Shown here: piece by piece, positions 1 through 54,112 of the stretch | How positions within the stretch are numbered: position 1 is the stretch's first letter | How the letters are laid out: each line of letters opens with the position of its first letter | Source of the DNA: Octopus sinensis | Taxonomy: Eukaryota | Assembly: GCF_006345805.1 (NCBI RefSeq) | Contig: NC_043001.1 | Coordinates: forward strand, 60,450,001 to 60,514,000 | Direction of reading: 5' to 3' | Length of the DNA: 64,000 nucleotides | Program-made: the position numbers and the translations under genes | Notes under the pieces: generated by a model | The model's input: the letters and a program-made list of their open reading frames with translations, nothing else | The model's database searches: none | What the model was told of the DNA's origin: nothing

Positions 1-976
1 CATGGATGATCCTGTCAAAAATACCACACACAGGATCGGGAGCTGCGGGAAATAGTTTGGTTAGTTAGATGGCAAGATGCTAGAGGTGATGTGGTCGCAG
101 AAATTGTCTGACAGCCACGACTGCGTTCTCTTGCTTGTGTGACATGGTGCAGAGGCCTATTGCCAGACATAACGTCTTCCAGCAGCCACCCTCTTGACCT
201 ACACACGATACAGGCTTCTGTGTTGTATCTGAGGCAAATTGGAAAGATGAACAGTGACATAACGTCGCCATCACTAGTGGTCCCTCTAAACAGACTGATG
301 TTGACTGGATGTTTGATATTTATCACTCTCGAAACATGTTTTGCCGACACGGCAAGTCACCAAATTTTCTTAGCAGAAATCTTTCTCGTCTGAGAAAAAA
401 ACCAAAGTATGTTCGGTTGGAGAGGACTCTAGAGTTCGTTTGAAATCTGCTTGGTCTGGTCTTACCTCTTGTACTTGATGGCTTGGGATACAAATTGGTC
501 CTTTGCCATCTTGTATAAGGAACACGGAATGTTTTCATGCACTACGCGCTTAATAGGAAACTCAGACACTCCCATGTCCCTGGTAATGGACCTGAATGAA
601 GTGGAGGGATCATTGTCAATCATAGCCTGGTTCTCACCAACAAATTCAGGCGTTCTTTTCTTATCAGAACGAACAGAGTGAGTTTTCCGAGCTGCCGTAT
701 CTTCGTAATCACCATTAGACTCAGCGAACTCTTTCTGAATTCTCTGCATTATCGTCAGATTGAGATACAACACACCGAAATGTTCTGGCGCGAATGCTAA
801 AAAGTATAGCATGTTGTTTTCGAATTTCTGGCAGAGTCAATTGCATCATGGAGTTGTTTTTCTCACAGACGGTGCCGAACTGATCGTGCTATACTAAGTA
901 GTCGACGAAGTCAAAAACAAAGCGTATACGCGAAATTAAAAGTATAAAAGAGTGACCATTTACACCTCGTACCCTG
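1..976 (-). mobile_element. Tc1/mariner-superfamily DNA transposon, degenerate transposase, runs off window start
   Basis: Minus-strand frames give an HTH region (SFRSITRDMGVSEFPIKRVVHE), FFSDEK (first catalytic D), HPVNISLFRGTTSDGDVMSLFIFP and a CHTS..TQSWLSDNF-like segment, with frameshifts. The right terminus reads CAGGGT on the minus strand (976) next to a TA (977-978), as expected for a TA target site. Confidence 0.85.
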
Positions 977-1468
977 TACATATATATATATATACACACA
1001 TATATGCTTCTTCTCCTCTCCTTAATTCCTTTGTTCCTATTTTTCTCCCTTTTCTCTTCTGACGTGACCTATTGGCCGACTGCTAGCCCTTCTGCGTCTG
1101 ACCATGGTCACCGCTACATCTATATCCTTCCCTCTGCCGTAAGGCTTCATTTCCACACACGCCAGCTGAATCCAATTCGTCCCAGTTGAAAGACGCCTGT
1201 TATTATACCCTGTTATTATTATTATTGTTATCATTATTGTATTTTTGTATTTATATTCGTGTAACATCGTCTGTTTATTCGTCCTTGTTTTCGCATACTT
1301 TCGATACTTTTTTCCCAATGAATCTAATGCTCTTAGCTTCGTTTTCCTTGGGGCTGTCCAGATTGGAGCAATCTCAAGATTAATCAGCCGAAATTGCGAG
1401 AATGATCCGGTTTTTGACTAAAGATAAAAGGTTTCGAATGACCCGTCCTTGTTTTTTTATATCGTTTA

Positions 1469-1582
<114 letters not shown>

Positions 1583-1702
1583 GCCTATATATCAATAATG
1601 TGCCTGACTTATTAGCAATTTAACAACCTGAATTTGCACACACAAAAAAGGGATAAATTCACGAAAGGAATGAAAATTAAAAACATTTACCATCTCAACT
1701 AT

Positions 1703-1774
1703 ATCCCAGACCGACGGTTTCTAACTATTTCCAGCAAAAAAATATTTGCTGAAGGCAAGTTTCTTCAGTGGGAC
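1703..1774 (-). ncRNA. Type I hammerhead ribozyme motif
   Basis: Minus strand: GUCCCA-CUGAAGA-AACU..(inner hairpin UUCAGCAAA/UUUGCUGGA)..AGUU-A-GAAA-CCG-U-CGG-UC-UGGGAU. Stem I GUCCCA/UGGGAU, stem III ACCG/CGGU, GUC cleavage triplet, one extra A before GAAA. Confidence 0.75.
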
Positions 1775-1924
1775 AGCCTTAATAATCCTGACGTACAGAC
1801 TGCTAGATCCACATGTAGATCTAACGGTTTGTAAATCCTAACTTTTCAAACCTCTGCGCAGACGCAAATTATACCCGGCGACAGAGAAGATGCCGGTAAA
1901 AATTTCGAACAAATTTATCAAACA

Positions 1925-2106
1925 ATATTTAAACATAATAAAATAGGGTAGTAATAAATTATTACCAGTGGCCTAGCACAAAAAACGAATTAGTCATTAG
2001 ACTATATATTATGAATAATATATAGTCTAATGACTAATTCGTTTTTTTGTGCTAGGCCACTGGTAATAGTAATTTATTATTACCCTATTTTATTATGTTT
2101 AAATAT
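1925..2106. repeat. Near-perfect ~90 bp-arm palindrome (2-nt loop), probable inverted pseudo-LTR end
   Basis: 1925-2012 is the reverse complement of 2015-2106 with a few indels/mismatches; followed by (TA)n. Confidence 0.9.
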
Positions 2107-3476
2107 ATATATATATATATATATGTAAAACTTTAGCTAAAATAAACATTCTATTCACTAATACTGCTTCTGTGCAAGATAAAATGAAAACCTTATGATT
2201 TCAATACATTCAGTCATGATTAGCGAAGCGAAACCGGTTGACCCTGTATGTACTGTAAGAGATTAAATAATGTTTATCTATACAAACAAGATTTCTGTTC
2301 TTTTTCACCTTAAATACGTTTTGCGCACGCGCGCGTTTGTGTTTGTGTGTGTGCATATATGTGTACGCTATCCTAAAGGCTTACTAACAACAACCTTAGT
2401 TTCATGTTGAAGATGTAAGATGAAATTACCCCTAACACTCTCTTTTGAAATTGCATGTTTACTTCCTTTATCTGGTAGTAGCGTATGCGATTTAGCAAAA
2501 ACAGAATTATTTATTAGTAGTGAGTATTTAGCAAAGGCAGTAACTCGAGTGTTTCTAAACATCCACTGGATTGTCATTTGTTAGTTGGAAGAGATCATAT
2601 GTTACGGGATGTGTCTTTCTATGTTGTTCTATGTTTGCCTGAATGTTGGCACTTGGTTATAAAATCTATCTGGAATTCACCTTTGCTCTTACAAAAGTAT
2701 TTTCCTTTATCGATTGTGTTTGACATTACTTCACTAAACTGAATTCAGAATTTGAGTGACCATAGTATCTGTTACATTATAACATAAACTGTACAGGAAA
2801 AATAAACCTCAAAAGCTAGTAAATAATTTCGATCGGATCTTTGCAAATCAGAGATAACACGCGTCTTGCTCAATTAAAAAACTTACATAATTATGTAAAC
2901 TGAAGAAAAGAGTTATTCGCCAAACATATATTTAATGTCGAAAATTCGTCGTTTCCAATTAGAAAAAAACTACTCAGAGCAGCATATCAGCACCACGATT
3001 CAGTAATTAAACTAACTAGAAACTATATTATTGTCACTATCAGCCCATGATTCATAATAACACTGACCCCACTGCATCTATTTCCAAATAATGTCAGGTA
3101 ACAAACCCGACTACTACAATAACACATGCATCAAAAAAATTTTCCGAGTCAAGTATTTTATTAACACAAGAGAACAGATACGAATTAAAAGAGGACAGTC
3201 ATAAGAGCTTATCAGTCTAAAATTTATTGAGAATCTGAAATATAAATTTATGTTTAGATACTCCTGAGTTTACTGATCCTAATTAATGTCGAAATAATCT
3301 GATGGTTCCGACGGCTACTTTGAGATGAAGAGGTAATGCCAGTTGAATTGATAAGGAATTAATGATGACTTCAGCCAATTATAATCAAATATTTTATTCC
3401 TTGAGCAGAAAAAAAATTTTAACTAGAAAATCTTTAACCAGAACACTTTTTAACTAGAAAACATTGAACATACTAA

Positions 3477-3900
3477 GGCGACGAGTTGGCAGAAATGTTA
3501 GCACAGTGGGCGAAATACTTAGCAGTATTTGTCTTGTCTTTACGTTCTGAGTTCAAATTTCGCCAAAGTCGACTTTGCCTTTCGTCCTTTCGGGGTCGAT
3601 AAATTAAGTACCAGGTACCCGCTGGGGTCACTATAACCGATTAAATTCCTTTGTCTGTCCTTGTTTGTCTCCTCTATGTTTAGACCCTTGTTGGAAATAA
3701 AGAAATAAGAAACGTTGGCACGCCGGGCGAAATGCTTAGGAGTATTTCGTCTTGTCTTTACGTTCTGAGTTCAAATTCCGCCGAGGTCGACTTTGCCTTT
3801 CATCCTTTCGGGGTCGATAAATTAAGTACCAGTTGCATACTGAGGTCGATCTAATCGGCTCGCCTCCTCTCCCCAAATTTCGGACCTTGTGTCTAGATTA
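3477..3900 (+). mobile_element. Two tandem tRNA-derived SINE copies (cephalopod-type)
   Basis: ~3477-3708 and ~3709-3900 share 'gggcgaaat..cttag..gtattt..tacgttctgagttcaaatt..gtcgactttgcctttc.tcctttcggggtcgataaattaagtaccag'; B-box-like GAGTTCAAATT. Confidence 0.85.
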
Positions 3901-4062
3901 TAAAAAAATACTTTGAACATAGTGTCTATAAAATATTCGTAACTTCATTGTGCGTTAATTATATAAGTTGCTAAGAGAATGGGAAAATATACATATATAT
4001 AAATGCACACACATACGCACCTGCACTTCCATGCGCACAAAACCATATATGCACTTACTCAC

Positions 4063-4101
<39 letters not shown>

Positions 4102-4857
4102 CTCACTAATCGGTTAAGCAGTTAAAGTCTCACTGGACATTACTAAGCCTTATTTCAATTAAGCGTGACTGCTCTACACATTATCTAGCTGGAAATATCT
4201 AAGGAATTTACATTGTGATTGAAACAGGTATTTCATTCACACTTCCTCAGTACAATACTGAGCATTCCATTTATTACTATCTGCACACTGTCTGTCTTTC
4301 TAATTATCATTCTGAAATTATACTTCGCCATAATCTTTGATTTATTTGACATATATCACAGGATGCATTACTTTTATCCAGAGAACAATATCAGTATTTC
4401 GATGAACGCGATTAAATTTAGCTCTTAGGGGATATATTATTCACCAAAAACAGCATGCTCACGCACTTGTAATGCTGAATTTCCGCTTCAGTTTTCGACA
4501 CTTTTAGTGGAATACTAATTAAACAAATGGTGTGAATAGAATATATATTTGTGTTTATTCGTTAAACACTAATATTTTCCATAGAAACTATTTAATTTGC
4601 GATATAATTTTGTCGTAAGTACATTTACATAGGAATTATATATTAATGAAATACATCAGATTCTTATTTTAATCACAATGGATACATTGAGACTGTCATA
4701 AACTATCCAATAATTAGTTGTACATTCAATCTTGTGAAGATTTATGTAAGATGATTTTATGTATATATATATGTGTGTGTGTGTGTATGTGTATCTATAT
4801 ATATGTATGTACATAAATACATACATACATACATACATACATACATACATACATACA

Positions 4858-40002: not shown

Positions 40003-40052
<50 letters not shown>

Positions 40053-40054
<2 letters not shown>

Positions 40055-40325
40055 CAATAATAAATCTCTGAACGAGATGTAAACAGTAACTGCTCGACAA
40101 CGTAAAGTATACTAGCCATCTCAATATGGCTAACTACTAAGGGTGCGTGTTACTGCAGCTTTTAGCCCCAGGAGATCATCTTCTCCAGCTGGCTCTAGGC
40201 TCATTTTCTGAGCCCTTATGGTATTTGCAAAGGGAGGTCATCCCTCTCTCGTAAACCGGTGATTGCCGTACGCCGAAGACAGGTAAATACCTCGAAACTG
40301 TAGTCCGTGCGTATCACTTAGGTTA
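40053..40325 (-). mobile_element. Diverged relative of the 43.6/48.1 kb hammerhead repeat, with internal inversion, inside (TA)n
   Basis: 40055-40263 aligns to the reverse complement of ~43657-43873; 40264-40322 switches strand and aligns to 43611-43668. Confidence 0.75.
40269..40309 (+). ncRNA. Degenerate minimal type I hammerhead motif
   Basis: UACG-CCGAAGA-C-AGGU(aaau)ACCU-C-GAAA-CU-GU-AG-UC-CGUG. Stems I-III pair; U4->C change and C.C at the base of stem II. Confidence 0.55.
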
Positions 40326-40541
40326 TATATACTATATATATATATATATAAGTATTAATTTATAAAAATATGGCAAAGTAAAAAAATTCACTTTACCACA
40401 CACCGAAATTTTCAGAAATAGCAGCCAAAAATTTGGCTATTTCTTCAACTGCAAATAAAAGTCTCCAGACAATGCATACTCAGAAAGTAACTCACATAGG
40501 TATAAGGGAAAAACAATGGAAGATCACATCCATATAAGATA

Positions 40542-40603
40542 CCCGAGGACAGCCTGTTTCTGGATTCGTGGGTTAAACGCCACTTTTCCTTCATCAGCTC
40601 AGA
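40542..40603 (-). ncRNA. Type I hammerhead ribozyme motif (inverted copy)
   Basis: Reverse complement of 40734-40795. Confidence 0.7.
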
Positions 40604-40733
40604 GATTTCTTCTGATTTAGATTTGAAAATACTAAGAATCAAACAGCTACAGTTTTTGCCTCTGTAGGAATGTACTACTCTATGACTCACGTGGGTGGAC
40701 AGGGAGAATAATAGATCTCATTTGTATCAGATC

Positions 40734-40795
40734 TCTGAGCTGATGAAGGAAAAGTGGCGTTTAACCCACGAATCCAGAAACAGGCTGTCCTCGGG
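40734..40795 (+). ncRNA. Type I hammerhead ribozyme motif
   Basis: (AGAUC)UCUGAG-CUGAUGA-A-GGA..GUGG(cguuuaac)CCAC..UCC-A-GAAA-CAG-G-CUG-UC-CUCGGG(UAUCU). Stem I extends to ~11 bp, stem III ACAG/CUGU, GUC triplet, A.A at the base of stem II. Confidence 0.7.
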
Positions 40796-41075
40796 TATCT
40801 TATATGGATGTGATCTTCCATTGTTTTTCCCTTATACCTATGTGAGTTACTTTCTGAGTATGCATTGTCTGGAGACTTTTATTTGCAGTTGAAGAAATAG
40901 CCAAATTTTTGGCTGCTATTTCTGAAAAGTTCGGTGTGTGGTAAAGTGAATTTTTTTACTTTGCCATATTTTTATAAATTAATACTTCAAATATACCGTA
41001 AATGGTCTTTTTACATACCGAATACTGCTTGGTCAAATTGATTAACAATTAATTAATTCTACCCCTTTTTTACTG

Positions 41076-42704: not shown

Positions 42705-43245
42705 TGGATGGCCGTTGACTCTCAAGGGTTCCTCCGCCCTTTGACAGGGTATCTTTATCATCCCGCAGGACGTCCAAGCAAGCTTGGTGGGACTACCGGT
42801 TTAGTCGCCGGCGGCCCGACCATGCGACAGGTTGTACCGGGTTACATGTTACCAGTAGCACTCGAAGTCACCTGATCGTAGCAGGTGGAGAAGGATTGTG
42901 CATGAGGGGACAGCTACTTTTGAGAAATTTCGAGTTGCGCATGAGAAAGTAAGGAAGGATGTCACGAAGAGACAGATGAGTGACAACCTAGACACTGGTG
43001 GTGGTGTTACACACCATACTAATCATATCTGTCACGCATGTGGAAGAGAGTGTAATTCGGCAGAGTGTAATGAAGCCCAATTGCAACTACAGCCGGCTAT
43101 TGCCGGTAAGGATTTTACATGCCAATTCTCTTCAAGACATTGCATATCTTTAGATGGGCTAAAAAGTCACATTCCATCACAGACCCAATAACAGTTAAAC
43201 TTCGTGCAATGTCCATACTCGATAACTAAGGGACAGTCATCATGT
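42705..43245 (+). mobile_element. RTE-clade LINE 3' end (C-terminal zinc fingers) preceded by a GC-rich non-coding block
   Basis: DRSRWRRIVHEGTATFE..HICHACGREC..FTCQFSSRHCISLDGLKSH is the typical RTE C-terminus. 42705-42873 is a distinct GC-rich segment. Confidence 0.7.
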
Positions 43246-43462: not shown

Positions 43463-43967
43463 AGAAAAAGGAACAGTAAGCATAATTAAATCTCAGAATG
43501 AGATTGAAACAGTAATCGCTCGATAATGTAAAGTATAGAAGCCATCTTATCGTGGCTAACCACATTCAGGAATTTGCAAAGGAGCCTTCACTTTCATCGC
43601 TACCTGGTGGTTGCCGCCCGTTGACGAGGGACAAACATCCCGAAACTAGTTCGAGCGTATCACTCAGGCTTGCGAGGAAGGGATGGCCTCCCTTTGCAAA
43701 TACTCCAAAGACACAGATATTGTGTTTAGAGCCAGCTAGAGACGAAGATCTCTTTGGGCTATAAAGCTACAGTAACAACTCCCTCCCCAATGTGGTTAGC
43801 CATGATAAGATGGCTTCTATACTTTACATTATCGAGCGATTACTGTTTCAATCTCATTCTGAGATTTAATTATCCTTACTGTTCGTTTTTCGACATCAGT
43901 GGCAGACGCCATTAGAAAACCTTATATCTATTTGCAAAGGAGCCTTCACTTTCATCGCTACCTGGTG
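43463..43967 (+). repeat. Hammerhead-bearing pseudo-LTR array: inverted partial copy + full ~358 bp unit + start of second unit
   Basis: 43463-43566 is the reverse complement of ~43788-43891; the unit start TTTGCAAAGGAGCCTTCAC occurs at 43573 and again at 43931. Confidence 0.9.
43616..43656 (+). ncRNA. Minimal type I hammerhead motif (C3U variant)
   Basis: GCCCG-UUGACGA-GGGA(caaaca)UCCC-GAAA-CUAG-UU-CGAGC. Stem II 4 bp, palindromic ACUAGU stem III, GUU triplet, stem I 4 of 5 pairs. Confidence 0.6.
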
Positions 43968-44220
43968 TTTTTTTAATTTTTCCTCGGCGTATACCAATAT
44001 TTTTCTGTTGCTGCAAATCGTTGTGTGAGTTCGTTTCCGTTTGTCTACTCTGTCGTGTTACAAGTAATATCATTGTTGAACTGTTTTTGACCCAGTAATT
44101 TTCGCCCTTCGGGGTAGAAAATTTCTGTGTATTGTTTTGTGTGAACTCTTAACCTGTATAGGTTATTTTTGAAAAAAAAAAAATTCTCTTGTCATTTGTA
44201 ACAAGTTTGTGTTGTCTAAT

Positions 44221-45714
44221 ATGGAATTAGACTTAAGTTCAAAAAAAGACTTTCCCAAGATGGGAGAAAGTATAACAACTGTTAAACAAAAGGAAACACA
44301 GGCAAAACCCAGTTTTTCAGACGCCGTAGGTGGCGAAGTCGAAGAAATGGAGGTGTCAATGGAAAGACTATTCAAGTTCAGATCGCTGGTGCAAAAAAGT
44401 GGTGAAGAAACACGATTGGTACCGCCCCCCGAAACTATACAAGCAATAAAGGAAAAAATGGTCACCTACAGGGTGTACAATATCAAGGAAAAACGAATGA
44501 CCGACGTGAAAAACGAAATGGTCGAAAAGTGTATGGCTCCAATATGGAGTAAAGTTAGTCATGTCAACCGAGGTGCAAGAAGCGCTACAGTGGAGGCGCA
44601 TTTTGAGACGGCGGAAGTAGCAAGGCAAATTTCGACACAAACGTTGAAAAACGAGAGTATAATACTGCTACCCTTATATTTAGGATGCAGAACCGCAAAA
44701 GTGACCCTAGAAGATATACCAACGGGCTACGACGTGATGTCGGCGGCAACAGCGGTCATTTTTGATGTTGAATCAAAATTGACAATTTTGAGTATGAAGA
44801 GGAAAATTGCAAAACACTGGAGAGGCCAGCAGCTGGAGATGATAATCCAGGCGGAAAATGCGACGTTGGAAAGCCTACCAGACAGAGTCTTCGTAGGGGA
44901 GGGGCACTCCATACGAGTTTCGGTGGAAGGACGCAGGCCCAGATGTTTTAAGTGCGGGCAAAAGGGCCACGTTCGCTCCGTTTGCACAAAAAAAAATAAT
45001 GCGGGCAACGCCCCCCCCCACAAAACGCTGTGAAGAACGCAGAAAGCAGCAAAGTGGAGAAAAAAGTAACGGCTGGCGAAAACAAGGAGGAAAAAATAAA
45101 CAGGTCGAACTCCAAAAAGGAGGAAGACAAGAACGAAATGCAAAATGAGAAAGGAAAGGAGGAGGAAAATAATACAACAAAAACAAATAAACAAGAAGAC
45201 ATGGAATTTACGAACGTGTCCAACAAAAGGAAAAAATCCATCACCCCTGACTCCCCACCCGTATCAAAAAAAAAAAAACAACGCAGACGAACAAATTAAA
45301 AATATTCTCCAATCCCACCCCGGCGGTACTACACTTATAGGCCAGCACTTTAACAAACCCCACCCCTCAACTGTAAAAGGGTTTAAACCCAACGAAAAAA
45401 TTATTGCATACACCACAAAGAACGTGAGAGTAGAAACATGGGTGAAAGCAAGTACGCTGATCAGGTGCTACAAAGCGACCGAGAAGGAAGCGGAGTGGCG
45501 ATATGGAAGGGTCGGCGAAGAAGGATGGAAAGACAAAACCTTACAAAGCCACGTAAAAGCCGGCTTCATTAAGGATGTCACCCAGGAGGTGACAACTGGG
45601 AAATTAGCCCGGCACGTTAGCCCGGCAGCCACACCAACCCAGCAGCAACGGCGAGTGGGGGGGGGGAGACAGGCAGAAAGAATCTGTCAGGCTCCCTCTC
45701 GCAACCGTGAGTAA
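44221..45714 (+). pseudogene. LINE ORF1 (gag-like, CX2CX4HX4C zinc knuckle), frameshifted
   Basis: EGRRPRCFKCGQKGHVRSVC; frame changes fall at or near A/C homopolymer runs (~44990-45020 and ~45266-45280). Confidence 0.85.
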
Positions 45715-45731
45715 ATAATTTTTTTTTCTCG

Positions 45732-48080
45732 ATGATTAAGTTAGGTTGTATAAATGTGCGTGGAATGGGATCGAAATGGAAACAGGCTTGTTTTCGTGAC
45801 GACCTCATTTCACATAGAATCGATGTAGCTATTGTTACCGAGTCCAAGATGAAAGGACCCCAAGCATTCTCACCACTTCTCAATGGTTACGAGAAATTTA
45901 TTTCTCCTAGCCGAGGGGGAGGTGCAGGCGTGGCAGTTCTTTTCAGGAAGAACTTGGACTTACAGGTCAGTACTGTCTTTTTGGACCCAGAAGGTAGGCT
46001 GGTTGTCCTAGATGTGACGCACGTGAGTAAGCAGTCCTTCAGGTTGGTGGCTGTCTACGCTCCTAACGGACGTGGGCAGACCGGTTTTTTTCGGGAACTG
46101 GAGCACTTTCTAGTGACGTCCAAAACGGTAGTCTTGGTAGGGGATTTCAACACCATTCTCGATGCGCGGGTGGATGGTGTAGGCTCGAGCGATACGAAGG
46201 AGAATCCTGGCCTCAAGGCTCTACTAGCGAGCTTTAATCTAGTAGACCGTTTTCGACTGGATGAGCCGAACGTTCCACAGTGGACGTGGAGTAATAACGA
46301 CGGCTCACGCAGATCGTACATAGATAGAGTATTTGTTAAGGAACGAGATAGGAATAGTGTTAGCTGTCCACAATTCTCTGTTGTGCCTTTCACGGATCAC
46401 AAACTTGTAACGTGTGAGGTACATGTAGATAAATGCCATAGACAAGGTCCCGGGTACTGGAAGATGAACAAGTCTATTTTGACTTGTGAAGATTTCCGTA
46501 CCCGGATTAAGGAATTAGTACAGAGGGCATTATGTGGCACCATCATTAATAATAGATGGTGGCTCGCCCTCAAAAGAGCCATCCGTTTGGAGTCCATTAG
46601 ATTTAGCAAGCAGCTAAGTTTAGATAGGACTAGAATAGAGGGCGAATTAGTTAAGAACTTAGACGAGGCTATGGAATCTGGCTGTGCATCAGGAGTGTTG
46701 GCAGCGAGAGCGGTATTGTACCGTCACCTCAACGCCAAGCACGAGGGTGTAGAGTCAGAGCTAAGTTACGTGCAGGAAAACGAGAAGGTATTAACGTTGC
46801 CGGATGGGCCCATCGTGAGGAGAGTCAGAAGGGCAAAAAGTCCTGTATTATGTCCTTAACTGACGAGCAGGACCGCAAGATCTATGGACAGGAGGAGATG
46901 CAGAAGGTCCTTCACCAGCATTTCGCACGGCTGTTTGGGGGCGGTGGTCCGCTCGAGCGTGGGGAGACCTTAAAGGACTTCCTAGCTGGTGGGCCTCGGC
47001 TCTCGGCAGGTGAGGCGGAGTCCTGTGAAGGATCGATCTCTCCCGCAGAGGTAAGAGGGGTTATGGCCGAGTGCGCCGGGGAAAAGTCGCCGGGATTGGA
47101 TGGTCTACCCTATGAATTTTATTGTTGTATGCCGGACTTGTTCGGGGACATACTGGCAAGCGTCTATGCAAACTGGCAACAGAATGGGAGGATTCCCAGC
47201 TCTGTGAGTCGGGGAGTTGTGACGCTGGTCCAGAAAGACCCGAGCAAGGGGGACAGTATTAGTAATTACAGGCCCATAACTCTACTTAATGTAGAGTTTA
47301 AGATTTTGGCCAAGGTGTTAGCAAAAAGGTTGACGGCTGTCGTGGAGAAACTTGTCGGGAAGGCACAGACATTTGCAATCCCAGGCAGGTCGATCCAGGA
47401 TAATCTGCACCTTCTCCGCTACACTATAGATAGGGTCGGGAAATTAGACGGCAAAGGCGGGACATTGGTCCATTTAGACCAAAGTAAAGCGTTTGATAGG
47501 GTAGACCATCGGTACTTGGCGGCGGTTCTCGAAGCGGCTGGGCTGGGCCCTAGCTTCTGCGGGTGGATCTCAGCTATGTACAGCGGCATCAAGTCCACAG
47601 TCCAGATAAACGGTTACCTAACGGAGCCGTTTTCGATCAAGCGTTCAGTTCGTCAAGGGTGCCCCTTGTCCCCGCTCCTGTATGTTTTGGCTCTTGAGCC
47701 ATTGCTGCGGAAGCTGGAGAAGTTGGGAGGCAACCCTAATGAAATCGGATGCGGTAAGTCTGTTTCTGCCTATGCGGATGACGTCACCCTCATTGTGTCC
47801 AACGGAACACAGCTACTTCGGGTAGTAGGTGCTCTCCATAGATACGAAGCGGTGGCAGGGGCAAAAGTTAACAGGGACAAGTCCATCGGTTTGCGCCTCG
47901 GCAACTGGAGGAACAAGCCGATACCGTCCAGTGTTGTTGGACACTGGACGGATGGTCCTGTTAAATTGCTCGGAGTCTGGTTTGGTCCAGACTCCCAGAC
48001 GGAGAAGAATTGGAGCGAGGTAACGAGCAAGGTGGATGCCATAGTACGGAAGTGGTCCGGAAGGCATCTTTCCTTGAAAG
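45732..48080 (+). pseudogene. LINE ORF2 (apurinic endonuclease + reverse transcriptase), one frameshift, C-terminally truncated
   Basis: APE motifs INVRG, VTESK, VYAPN, VGDFN, SYIDRVF, FTDH. RT motifs KSPGLDG, NYRPITLLN, DQSKAFDRV, VRQGCPLSPLLY, AYADD. A 1-bp deletion near 46748 joins the two ORFs. Confidence 0.92.
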
Positions 48081-48373
48081 GGAGCCTTCACTTTCATCGC
48101 TACCTGGTGGTTGCCGCCCGTTGACGAGGGACAAACATCCCGAAACTAGTTCGAGCGTATCACTCAGGCTTGCGAGGAAGGGATGGCCTCCCTTTGCAAA
48201 TACTCCAAAGACACAGATATTGTGTTTAGACCCAGCTAGAGACGCAGATCTCTTGGGGCTATAAAGCTACAGTAACAACCCCCTCCCCAATGTGGTTAGC
48301 CATGATAAGATGGCTTCTATACTCTACATTATCGAGCGATTACTGTTTCAATCTCATTCTGAGATTTAATTAT
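48081..48373 (+). repeat. Second copy of the hammerhead pseudo-LTR (direct repeat of 43581-43873)
   Basis: Colinear at an offset of exactly 4500 bp; about 5 substitutions in 293 bp by eye. Confidence 0.95.
48116..48156 (+). ncRNA. Minimal type I hammerhead motif (identical to 43616-43656)
   Basis: Same sequence as 43616-43656. Confidence 0.6.
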
Positions 48374-51339
48374 GTATAAATAAAGTTTTATTTTTACCCA
48401 GAAAGTTTTTTCACTTGGATGACTTCATTTCTCAGAATTTTTAAAATCATTACTATCTGTGCTTTTTTTACTTCCTCCTTTACTTCCTCTCTGTCACACC
48501 CTCTCACTCTCTCTCTTTCTCTCTCTTTCTGTCCCCCTATCTATCTATCCATCTATCTATCTTTGTTTATTTTTATTTATCTGTTTATCTAGTCTTCTGT
48601 TACAGCCATGCCCAATTGACTCTCTCCTATTCTTCCTTTATCTCTCTTTATGTTCTATCCTTGTAAATAATTATTTCTTTACTTATATTTTCTCTGCTCA
48701 AATGTCCTACCTACAACATTTTGCCCTCTATTTAAACATGCTTTTGTATAATATTCCTTCTTGTATCATTCAGGCTGCTTTTCAAATGTGCAATGCATTC
48801 TTACCCTAATGTAAGCAACCACATTATTATAGATTCTATTTATTCAGCAGCAGCTTCTGTATTCGCAATATAATATTTTTTTCTGAAACAATCAACTTTT
48901 CATATTGGAATAATCTTTAAAATCCCTGTTCCACTGAACGATGATTATAGTTGACGAAACACCGATTTAAGTAATCGACCAGTTCACTAAAATTTTGATA
49001 GCACATTCACATAACGCGCAAGTTGCATCTTTCTTGTTTTTGAGAATTGCAACTTCGCAATATCCTTGTCTTAGATCTTGGCTATCCATGTAAATGTGTA
49101 GATACACGCATTCTATTGCGACACGTTCTTGCTGCTCCTTTCTTCGTGCCTACCAATTTGAAAACATTAATGGGGATAATTTTCCCAATCATGCATAGAT
49201 TTTAGTTCAACATTGGTTTCAGATTTCCATCGCACTCGCAAGGAAATTGCACGTTCGAGCAATGTCAATTACATCCAATTATTTTGGCTAATGAAACTCT
49301 TCCAATATTTCCAAAAGTGTTTACTTTGTGTACCTGTTCAAGGAACGCATTTGCAAATAGTTGATTTGTGTTTATCCCTTAACACAACATTCATTCACAC
49401 GCACTCGCAAGATAATATGGTCATATATACGTACACGCAGATTAAACATAATAGAAATAACGCATCCATTTATGACTCACCATGTGACTGCCGAATACGT
49501 AATACTTAAGAGAGCATGTCTGAGCTAGTACTTTATTGAATTTTATAAAAGAGTTTGAAAACGTATATTGTATAGATATTTGAAATGCGCACGAGTAGGC
49601 TGGGAAGGTATTTCAAAATCAAGACAAAACATAAAAATCCACGGGAAATGAAATAATATCTCACTTATAAATTTTCTTTCGGAAGGATGCAAAAGCATAA
49701 GAGAAAAGGAGAGTGGCAGAATGCGATACAAGGACGAAGATGGAGCTCAGAATTTCATAAGCAAATGTTGATACGTATGTACACTTGAAAGTTAGCTGCG
49801 CATTAGAAAATCAAACGGTATCTTAGAGAAACAGAGCGACAAATTCATGTTATCACATTGAAAACGCTAGAGTGGGATCTGAAGGACGTTTGGCAGCAAC
49901 ATTTGCAGATCAAGCGATTGTTGATGCATGTCTTCCGCAAAGCTGCTGCTATTATGTGATAGTATAATTTATCATCAGCTGACGTGCTCTATAGAAGACT
50001 TGTGATGCGTATTATGAAATACGCTTTGTAATAAGACGGTAAATTGTGATTTTTACTTGATGTGTCTACTTTTTCTAGAATATTGTTTTGCATGTTAGAA
50101 GTCTTTGTGGTTGAAGGCGTAAAACATTAGGTTGCGATGAGTGATACTGAACTGAAATATTCAGAAGATCAGTCGACCACAAAAATGCTAGTATTTCATC
50201 ACCTCACACATCTTTTTCTAAAGAGACTATGCTAACATGAGGAGGGAGCTTCAATAAGTCAGATGTAATTTGAGAGAGATTTGGTTGATACTTATAGCTT
50301 GCTAGGAGCTAATATCTTTGTGTTCATTATTTTTGTGTTGTTTAGTTTATCCCAGAGTAAGATATTGGTGTAAAACTATGACCTAAATTATTCAAATTCT
50401 GAACATTTTGAGTTTTACTTATGCGCATGAATACGAAGGTCATATATGCTATATGTATAATTTTGTGGGATGGTGTTACTAACTTGGAGACATTCCCACA
50501 TTAGTCATCATAGATAAAACCAATTGAACGCAGACTTGAGTACAATGAACACATGCTCTTTTGCACATACATATACACATGATACACATGCTCTTTTGCA
50601 AATAAACTATTAACCATGTGCTTTACAAGCACCAACACACCTTGGGTCTCAAAGAAGTGCTCCTATACTTAAATTCAAACACGCATTAAGATTCGATGAA
50701 TGATTAAACCGCTTCAGTTGGCTTCTGGGTTTACTCTCGTTAAATCAGTGTCTTCACATTTCTTTTTAATGTTGTATATGGAATAATAATAGTAGTAACA
50801 AAATCATTAATTTCATATAATATATTTTTAATATTAGAATCGTTTTATATGTTTCATTTTTAAAAGTCAATTCATGTTTCTTTAACGCTTAAAATGCAGA
50901 CTGGATTCTTGTTTCCAGAAATGTCTTTTATCTTTGAGTTTATTCCCGAAATAACAAAAGATATTTACATGAATGACTACTGCTCGTCTACTTACAACTA
51001 TTACACAAAATTCATTGTTTGGTGTTGCCATACCAAAAAACATTTAATTTACCATTTTAGCATTGCAGGATCTATAAAGATTAAAATATAGACGCCACAT
51101 TAAATCGAAGTTCTGTATTACAGAAACAAACTGATATATGAAAAGAAAACCATAAACCGAATGTTCCTTGATTCAGGTAAGTCATGAAATATTTTATAGA
51201 TACAGGAAACAAGTTTGTAGTATATAAAAAATATATATCTTTTAGTAGCAGAGAGTCTTAAGTACATAAGAATTAACCGAGGGGAACGAATATGTGTGTA
51301 TGAATAGCGACATACACACAAACACATGCACGCACGCAC

Positions 51340-51490: not shown

Positions 51491-51829
51491 GATAGAGATT
51501 AGAGATAGAAAATGGAATTCATGAGATTGTTTTATTCAAAACCACTACAATTTTTCGACTCAGTGTCATACCTATAGTTCATAGATAAGATGTGCTGTTA
51601 ACTATCTTGCATCACAGATGTACAATGTGCCTCTCAGGCGATATTTTAAACAAGTTCCTCGTCACGTCATCTCGATATTTCACTTTGTTTTCAGATTGGT
51701 AGGCACGAAGAAAGGAACAGGAAGAACTTGTCGCAATAGAATGCGTGTAGCTACACATTTACATGAATAGCCAAGATCTAAGACAAGGATGCTGCGGAGT
51801 TGCAATTCTCAAACAAAAGAAATATGCAA

Positions 51830-52470
51830 CATGCGCGTCACGTGAATGTGCTATCAAATGTTACCAGGTTAACATTCTTGAAAACGGTTCTGACCTTGAA
51901 TGGAGACTCTGCGGCAGATCTAACGAAATAATAGACCATCTCATTTCGGGATGTCCTGTACAGACACTAAACGAATACAAAAATCAATATAATATGGTAG
52001 AGAAGTATTTACATTAGAAAATATGTAAACACTACAATATCAACACACCTGCTTAATGGTATGAACATCATCCTCACCCAATCGTTGAAGGTAAAAATGT
52101 CACTAACTTGTGGAGTTTTCCAGTCAACAACGACAGAACGATCCAAGCTAATCAATTAGACATAACAATTTAAGCCAGGGAAGAAAATACTTGCAGAGTA
52201 ATAGGTGTAAGTGTTCCAACTGATAAAAATATATCTGTAAAGGAATTTAAGTAAATGTAAGAACCTGGAAATGGAATACATAAGATATAGCATCTGAATG
52301 CGAGAACTGTTCCTGTTATAATAAGATGCACGAGATATGATTAAAAAACGGGATGTCAGAAACATCTACCTAACCTCCATGGATAATCATGTATCAGTGA
52401 AATTCAAAACACTGTGCTGACATTTACTACCGACATCCTAAGAGAAACCCTATCAATTTAAATGTCTATG
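51830..52470 (+). mobile_element. R4/Dong-clade LINE 3' end (zinc knuckle + restriction-like endonuclease), degenerate
   Basis: RLCGRSNEIIDHLISGCP, YLH*KICKHY, WYEHHP, LWSFPVNNDRTIQANQLDI (cf. RPDI), IGVSVPTDKNISVKE. Confidence 0.8.
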
Positions 52471-52668: not shown

Positions 52669-54112
52669 TTTTTTATTAACAACAAGCGCTTACATAAAAC
52701 AACATAAAATGGCACACAATAACAGGAAAAAGTAGTACAAGACAATCCAAAGGGTTTTCAAATAGAGTAAACAGTAAAATGACAATTGAAATTAAAGCAT
52801 AAAATCTCCCAATGAACCCTGCCGAAAATTCTCAGGAAGAAACCAGTCAGTTGACCCAAGTCGATGCTCAGGGTTTCCCCATGAATGTCGTCGCACTATT
52901 GCTCTACCAACCAGCTATAGAACGCTACAGTGGAACTACCGCCGAACACATTGCAGAGAGCTGGGAGGGTTTCTCGACATTCGAGTTGCTAAGCGCCCTT
53001 CCACCGTCTAAATAAATCCAAGATTGCAGCCCCGTAGAGAGACGAGCTGTGGACGAGCGAGTGTGACAAACGTTGACCATGCCTGCTCGCCATCAAGGAA
53101 CGCTGGAGTTGCTGCAGCCTGAGCGCATGTCTGCGCATCAGCAACCACGCCATGCCCAGGCCCCTATTCAGCGGCTGTTGACAGCAGATAGGACGCTTTA
53201 CCAGCAGAAAGCGACCCCTCTACATAAAGCAGAAGAGGATGCAAACCAGATTGTTCAGCCAATATAAGGAGCAGAGACAAGAGTCAAGCGGTAATTGATG
53301 ACGGATGCAATGTACGCATTCGCCACCTCAGCTGGACCTTTCGGGGACAGCTTCCCATCGGCCGATTTCTTGGTGATATTGGCCACCTTGGTCGTCACCT
53401 CATCCCAGGTTTTCTCCTCCTAGAGGTCTGGATCGAAGCAGACGCCGAGCAATTCAATCGGTCCGTCTGTCCAGCGCACCATGACGCTGTTGGATGGCAT
53501 AGATTTCCCCCTCCAGGTACCGAGTTGCAAGCTCACTGATTTTTTCTCGTTAATATTTTCTCCTGTCACCGTTGCATATTCTTGTAGTATTTATGTACTT
53601 GTGGCTCGATATTTTCACAGTGACATCTTCGCCCTAAGCAAACACCCTTCTTCTACATCCTATATAATGCGGGATACACCTCAATGCCGCCAACGTCCAC
53701 AGCAGTGGATTAAGAGTCAATAAATACAGAAGAGATGATAGAGGGCACCCTCGAGAGACCGAGCACAAAATGCCAAATGGTTCTGAAAGGAGATCACCCA
53801 AACAACCGAGCAGATGCCGCTGTACAAAGCAGTGATCCAACTGAAGAAAACCGGGCCGAAACCGGCTGCTCTGAGAACAGCTGCAAAGTAATGATGGTCG
53901 AGCCTTTCGAAGGCTTTAGATTGATCTAAATTGATCGGAATCCTACCCACCAGAGCTTCGTTACCCACCCTCTCTATTATGTAGCGCATGAGGTGGAGGT
54001 TGTCGTGAATAGTCCTGGTTAGGACGGCGCATGTTAGCGCCTTAACAATCAGCTTGTCCACGATAAGCGACAACCTCTTGTCTAATATCTTGACCAAAAT
54101 CTTCAACTGCAT
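52669..54112 (-). mobile_element. Tx1-like LINE, 5'-truncated degenerate copy related to 43968-48080
   Basis: KILVKILDKRL..IHDNLHLMRY..LDQSKAFERLDH, SRGCPLSSLLYLLTLNPLL; continues past LSPKG with PAEVANAYIASV; ends near AATAAAAAA. Confidence 0.85.

Follow-up and report, generated by a model that had tools for sequence, protein, structure and literature searches.

A 3'-damaged L1/Tx1-type LINE at a fixed site of a hammerhead-bearing repeat in Octopus sinensis, likely guided by a predicted snRNA-type promoter

Background

A stretch of 64,000 nucleotides from Octopus sinensis (contig NC_043001.1, positions 60,450,001 to 60,514,000; hereafter the window) contains, at positions 43,463 to 48,373, a long interspersed nuclear element (LINE) set between copies of a repeat that bears a hammerhead ribozyme-like motif. 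Do the LINE and its flanking repeats form a mobile unit, reminiscent of an element with long terminal repeats (LTRs), or did a LINE enter the repeat by itself and suffer damage later? A previous sequence-only reading had kept both options: a Penelope-type capture of LINE RNA, giving a mobile hybrid, and an insertion followed by trimming at a microhomology. Comparison of the locus with its relatives throughout the genome makes it probable, in our judgment, that the window harbors an L1/Tx1-type LINE of a target-specific family, damaged at its 3' end, inserted at a fixed site of a retrozyme-like repeat and likely guided there by a promoter.

Target-site specificity of the LINE family

Full copies of the family are 5525 bp long, terminate in CATAATAAAGAAAA and carry no poly(A) tail. 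Their 3'-end pattern provides the unbiased test of specificity, since the query used for the 5' end contained the site itself. The pattern has 47 exact matches in the genome (two for its reversed control), 45 of which continue into the target motif of the repeat and one into a U2 gene, the last having no LINE behind it. At the 5' end, all 40 scored matches start at a single site, located in the repeat or a tandem spacer in 39 cases and in U2 in one. This uniform junction bears out both the preferential insertion after CTGGTG that the sequence-only reading had envisaged and the first half of its second option, the entry of a LINE into the repeat. The insertion lies between unit positions 35 and 18/19, and in 21 of the 22 young-unit pairs the same 18-bp duplication, TTTCATCGCTACCTGGTG, is present on both sides. 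One locus (L119) suggests that the LINE accounts for the initial T, which would make the duplication 17 bp; the target-site duplication thus measures 17-18 bp. In four of the 21 pairs, one and the same polymorphic position has T on one side and G on the other, as would be expected if one side were derived from RNA. With nearly all pattern matches at one repeat site, accompanied by a duplication, the family is a target-specific LINE; it does not show the specific U2 insertion of Keno, only 1 of 46 copies being found at U2.

LINEs that are 99.3-99.7% identical to the copy at L037 occupy a unit of about 75% identity (L116), another of 87% (L114) and a complete U2 gene (L115; 183.6 bits), and a LINE that is 5'-truncated at position 4516 (L322) is flanked by the duplication on both sides. 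Because near-identical LINEs reside in divergent units and in U2, and because the duplication accompanies even the truncated copy, we interpret the copies as independent insertions and not as a travelling composite. The same observations (the repeat subfamilies concerned being 72-87% alike), together with a 3' junction that is single-copy genome-wide, speak against the LTR-like chimera, the Penelope capture and the mobile hybrid of the sequence-only reading. No two loci share the same pair of junctions, as a mobile LTR-like composite would, and what look like flanking "LTRs" are the two parts into which an ordinary target-site duplication has divided the host repeat.

The family is young and of the L1/Tx1 type. 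In full-length copies Pfam identifies zf-CCHC (at about the cut-off), Exo_endo_phos, RVT_1 and zf-RVT, which corresponds to the layout of the L1 group: a zinc knuckle in open reading frame (ORF) 1, and an apurinic-type endonuclease (APE), a reverse transcriptase (RT) and a C-terminal zinc motif in ORF2. Among solved structures only, ORF2 is nearest to L1 ORF2 (E 6.5e-52, versus 9.5e-23 for R2), and its nearest named homologue is from Argonauta hians (63%). The Tx1 label is provisional, as no named Tx1 reference was among the matches, and this counts against the classification. At least two sister families use the same site in mixed arrays, and head-to-tail LINE arrays occur on C6, C22, C9 and C2. 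Small ORF-breaking indels are found in many LINE copies of the assembly. The passages of an octopus repeat annotation (PMC13282606) describe active L1-Tx1 families and give no targets for them.

Promoter-like features of the insertion site

The insertion site straddles a predicted start of the small nuclear RNA (snRNA) type. The hexamer ATCAGT is located at -64 to -54 in 23 of 24 U2 loci (the best 25 of 48, one split by a LINE being omitted), in 18 of 20 U1 loci (20 of 42) and in none of 15 U6 loci (15 of 48). Of 36 occupied units, 32 also have it 57 to 59 nt upstream of ATCG (background, 0.003 per scanned interval), and a matrix of eight promoters ranks the ATCAGT site best in 31 of the 36 loci, which are related and represent only a few independent subfamilies. 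In the window the hexamer occupies 43895-43900 on the forward strand, and the predicted +1 follows 59 nt further on, at 43954 (unit position 22), a start placed by the U1/U2 register and by the piece carried in L115. By hexamer and position, the repeat would therefore have an snRNA-type promoter, whose proximal sequence element (PSE) would precede +1 by about 60 nt.

The length of repeat upstream of the start distinguishes occupied from empty copies. At least 171 nt of repeat precede +1 in all 26 occupied ones (family copies in young or 87-89% units), compared with 13 of 60 empty ones (Fisher p about 1e-12); the raw empty count of 12/61 became 13/60 upon correction of L243+ (a sister LINE) and L264 (under-measured), and the empty sites were drawn from 67 of the 100 target sites listed. 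For two insertions of sister families the upstream repeat measures 144 and 156 nt.

Some LINEs have carried a start with them. In L115 the LINE brought unit positions +1 to +14 into U2, where it is inserted at -3/+11, and a sister-family copy at L198 bears a U1 head (+1 to +17) at a non-U1 locus. At L199, a 14-nt U2 head precedes LINE-like sequence, and at L233 a 5'-truncated sister copy lies between the U1 promoter and the U1 gene. All unit subfamilies and U2 have YTYATCG in common.

The sister LINE family (83-88%) extends over 1560-6860 of L198, where it sits between two inverted U2 genes, and is also present at L233/L200 in the C15 U1 cluster. At 5690-5850 of L199, three tandem U2 heads are each followed by LINE-like 5' sequence, with a shortened U2 promoter upstream. 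U2 genes with intact upstream promoters occur on many chromosomes (L123-L147), and pieces of the hammerhead repeat lie within 1.5 kb of 6 of these 25 loci; the U2 units are perhaps mobile. Two U2 loci with A-rich upstream sequence (L202 and L234) contain no LINE of the family.

An RNA polymerase III (Pol III) promoter was set aside in view of the lack of the hexamer at the 15 U6 loci (many of them maybe retrocopies) and of the LINE sequence, which has a T run at its start and 23 stretches of at least four T. A TATA-like stretch near -30 may keep the Pol III interpretation alive. A distal element shared with U1 and U2 was not found in an alignment that was poor and had one row misplaced.

The host repeat

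The host unit is dispersed, with 1374 candidate loci genome-wide, 40 of which were scored, and the young subfamily has 249 exact target sites. The first 100 of the latter comprise 80 uninterrupted sites (as judged by the pattern), 9 LINE 5' junctions, 8 LINE 3' junctions and 3 tandem spacers. Tandem units, each of 358 nt and devoid of an ORF, number up to about four on C8. Empty copies take the form of partial tandems that are truncated at the 5' end and in many cases have an inverted arm, a combination described as the Penelope-type layout in the passages of PMC8557442. Their ends fall mostly at unit positions 244-305, with clusters near 255-259 or 299-305, and on this ground the 35-bp piece ahead of the LINE was rejected as a Penelope "tail".

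Among 15 chosen copies from subfamilies 72-100% alike, 90.4% of the cells in the type I hammerhead structure are paired, with 20 double changes, a covariation reached by none of 500 shuffles (slid controls, 9-53%); two count-based pairing measures are weaker (33/500 and 398/500 shuffles). Rfam detects no hammerhead in the host unit, by gathering score or E-value, and the motif, when folded as a single strand, does not surpass its shuffles (z 0.46 and -0.40). The hammerhead of the sequence-only reading is thus sustained by its core letters and by covariation, and not by Rfam. Stem III is palindromic in all copies aligned, a feature which, according to the passages of PMC4209133, marks dimer-dependent hammerheads and goes with poor cleavage in Penelope elements. 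Activity is uncertain, because the core of the young subfamily has the non-canonical U3 and U17.

Given a 358-nt tandem unit without an ORF and a predicted type I hammerhead structure, we class the host unit as probably working like a non-LTR retrozyme. It also resembles Penelope-like elements in its inverted arm and partial tandem insertion; in the window, an RT-GIY-YIG ORF between the pseudo-LTRs is absent, and an APE-RT LINE is found there instead. As for an autonomous Penelope partner, the host unit is present at none of the 30 loci of one Penelope-like family, where a single weak piece (71%) was noted. The Penelope-like family at L273-L302 is abundant and has a hammerhead-like motif of its own, and its 3' end shares TTTACAT(A/T)AT with the end point of many host-repeat copies. 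A hairpin, AGCCAT..ATGGCT, at unit positions 222-240 (window 43796-43814) is conserved across subfamilies and falls in the stretch that distinguishes occupied from empty copies.

Organization of the window copy and its 3' join

The locus begins with an inverted partial host unit (unit 215-317; reverse strand, 43464-43566, 97% over 103 bp), which forms an inverted 5' arm as in Penelope-type insertions, a layout that recurs at many empty host-repeat loci. The features that follow are all on the forward strand. Sequence comparison places a full 358-bp retrozyme-like unit at 43575-43932; it contains the first type I hammerhead-like motif (43612-43659; core TTGACGA at 43621-43627, palindromic stem III ACTAGT, predicted cut after 43651). 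Next comes the start of a second host unit (unit positions 1-35, 43933-43967), which includes the left copy of the duplication (43950-43967). The LINE occupies 43968-48084 (family positions 1-4138 of 5525); Pfam matches zf-CCHC in ORF1 (44221-45033) and assigns APE and RT to two frames, the former from 45732 and the latter to 48084. At 48081-48084 a GGAG microhomology joins LINE position 4138 to unit position 11 of a downstream host unit (unit 11-299, 48085-48373; 97.7% over 300 bp), which carries the second hammerhead-like motif (predicted cut after 48151) and stops at 299, as do many empty copies. The sequence-only reading had described this architecture accurately: the inverted partial and full units, the ORF1, APE and RT of the LINE, the microhomology join to a ribozyme unit about 98% alike, a 29-bp string on each side of the LINE and two hammerheads, whose predicted cuts lie exactly 4500 nt apart. 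The start of the second unit, which it had also recognized, measures 35 bp from unit position 1 and not 37. It was likewise correct as to the 3' truncation, since the LINE's own family continues with LSLKGRAEVAQMF and extends 1387 bp further.

These 1387 bp, missing at the join, include the zf-RVT region and the LINE 3' end. Relative to two family copies, the window copy has in addition a frameshift near 46745 in ORF2 and lacks 31 bp at 45643. In view of the frameshift and the missing 1.39 kb, a 4.5-kb RNA released between the hammerheads would not be autonomous. Recurrence of both junctions had been proposed as a check of the mobile hybrid; the 5' junction recurs, whereas that at 48085 occurs once in the genome in a search allowing up to one mismatch.

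The join is most likely a microhomology deletion, as internal deletions at 2-6-nt microhomologies in five other family copies make deletion the leading cause. A simple deletion requires a further tandem unit, because unit positions 11-17 are absent from the normal duplication, and this counts against it; a deletion into such a unit carries about half of the weight in our estimate. Internal priming from a shifted nick, as reported for Alu and L1 in the passages of PMC5402677, fits the join with no further tandem unit and is a possible, less favored origin, while a template switch is highly improbable. Collapse of a full-length insertion at 48085 during assembly, an error that would be compatible with the family-level explanation, is unlikely: the single-copy junction and the small ORF-disrupting indels in many copies of the assembly are in its favor, and against it stand the clean microhomology, as in the five other deletions, and the presence of unit positions 11-17, absent from any collapsed normal insertion. 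Read contigs of runs X1, X8, X2, X3, X6 and X15 show the normal LINE continuation at 48084, X2 also having the normal 3' end. Among the read-contig pieces listed (two sets, X1, X8, X2, X3 and X1, X2, X6, X15, from pre-filtered records), whose runs are not known to be from the assembled individual, no piece bridges 48085 and no step in depth appears at 48055. The chimera is probably a one-off; the interest lies in the targeting by the family, the window copy itself being of little weight.

Proposed mechanism and alternatives

In the mechanism that we favor, the predicted snRNA-type promoter of the repeat would guide the LINE to its target, with nicks about 3 nt before and about 14 nt after the U1/U2-type start. 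The LINE RNA would be transcribed from the host promoter, starting with host +1 to +14 and reading through at its 3' end into host sequence, and its ends would pair with the target; such pairing would account for the uniform, tail-less and mostly full-length junctions. The carried heads and the differences between duplication copies suggest an RNA that starts at host +1 and has ends that pair with the target. The putative downstream hammerhead could trim the 3' end of the RNA, and the window copy would afterwards have lost 1.39 kb at the GGAG microhomology. We put forward tentatively, as a doubtful extension, that the LINE clade finds U1, U2 and the retrozyme via the snRNA promoter machinery and enters them directly past +1, borrowing the host promoter for the 5' end of its RNA and the hammerhead for the 3' end. 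If true, the LINE would be a hyperparasite that takes both RNA ends from another mobile element.

Several observations weigh against promoter guidance and independent insertion. The matrix is weak in the young subfamily, and shuffles match the score of the window site in 34 of 200 cases; the small number of independent subfamilies has been mentioned above. Local sequence also counts, because U2 and the repeat share ATCGCT and the L198 copy is inserted at a non-promoter site sharing TTATACTT. Older LINEs group with divergent units on the tree (0/500 shuffles), which co-mobility also predicts, and four 5'-truncated copies (L103, L106, L107 and L338) have no upstream unit, a state that later damage or 5' target loss explains. 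The first of these observations favor a nested insertion whose site is set by endonuclease preference, together with RNA-end pairing or open chromatin, the PSE being incidental and the LINE using its own promoter; the YTYATCG motif of all unit subfamilies and U2, the short U1-like match at L198 and the rule stated for Tx1 in the passages of PMC4494074, namely sequence-specific endonucleases, point in the same direction. We nevertheless regard it as rather unlikely, since a 7-mer is too short to hold 45 of 46 insertions in one repeat, and since it leaves unexplained both the split in upstream length (26/26 versus 13/60) and the carried +1 heads.

The truncated copies without an upstream unit would also suit a mobile composite, in which the hammerheads free a unit-LINE-unit RNA that a Penelope-type RT copies whole, the window form resulting from a template switch at GGAG. 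A hammerhead-to-hammerhead circle predicts such a layout, and occupied loci resemble empty ones in carrying the inverted arm and in stopping at unit 251-305. This course of events is very improbable in light of the single-copy window junction, the near-identical LINEs in unrelated flanks and U2, the duplication around the truncated L322 and the lack of the host unit at the 30 Penelope loci; empty copies, moreover, mostly break off no more than about 350 nt from the start site, yet most LINEs are whole over 5.5 kb. A minor composite route may apply to some copies.

Comparison with known systems

Insertion next to the start of a small-RNA gene has precedents: NeSL, CRE and SLACS insert a few bases past the start of spliced-leader genes, and TRE5 and Ty3 are placed beside Pol III genes via promoter-bound factors. 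These elements belong to other clades or involve other polymerases, and the host here is a mobile ribozyme repeat. The Keno and Utopia site is further inside U2, unlike that of the present family, which has only 1 of 46 copies at U2, at -3/+11.

Tx1 families nested in repeats or snRNA genes are already known, according to the passages of PMC4494074, PMC4640811 and PMC8869645. Like Tx1L in Tx1D, Tx1-Mar in Mariner-N4_AMi and Keno in U2, as these are portrayed in the passages of PMC4494074, the present family is an APE-RT LINE located at a fixed site, in this case in another repeat, and forms tandem insertions; flank-driven transcription is proposed there for Tx1-clade LINEs, as here. The targets enumerated in the same passages are DNA transposons, LTR elements, microsatellites, satellites (unspecified), U2, U5 and 5S, from which a hammerhead repeat at its predicted start differs. 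Keno and Utopia also share U2 insertion and tandem insertion with this family, and Utopia differs in having a restriction-like endonuclease (passages of PMC4640811). The host repeat is similar to the non-LTR retrozymes described in the passages of PMC7229834 and bioRxiv 10.64898/2026.07.22.740005, with their tandem units of 170-400 nt, type I hammerhead and likely mobilization by Penelope; no LINE targeting retrozymes appears in those passages. The inverted arm, the partial tandem and the hammerhead with a small palindromic stem III recall the Penelope-like elements in the passages of PMC8557442 and PMC4209133, which differ in that the ORF between their repeats is RT-GIY-YIG. No report of a LINE that targets a hammerhead repeat or snRNA-type starts was found in the literature searched, Repbase and most subscription papers being outside that search.

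Targeting in Tx1 is usually attributed to endonuclease preference, whereas occupancy here hinges on the presence of about 170 nt of host sequence upstream. With LINE sites in register with U1 and U2 starts, and about 250 natural targets that differ in the promoter kept, promoter-guided integration becomes directly testable, and the family offers unusually clear genomic evidence for promoter-dependent targeting. The results also suggest that this invertebrate retrozyme carries a promoter of the snRNA type, like the one reported for newt satellite 2 (cited in the passages of PMC2220036). The full-length, precise landing of the LINE may be of use in site-specific insertion work.

Other features of the window

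At 40043-40325 lies a copy of the hammerhead repeat that belongs to an older subfamily (70-80% alike) and has an inverted arm; it adjoins a perfect 257-bp inverted repeat at 40350-40987. A short open frame at 42859-43191 resembles the C-terminus of another LINE, perhaps of the RTE type, and has no match in Pfam. On the reverse strand, 53115-54108 contains decayed sequence distantly related to the LINE (64% identity), with no host unit detected alongside. A pair of 173-bp inverted repeats (48994-49166 and 51686-51858), 2.5 kb apart and 91% complementary, possibly represents a DNA transposon.

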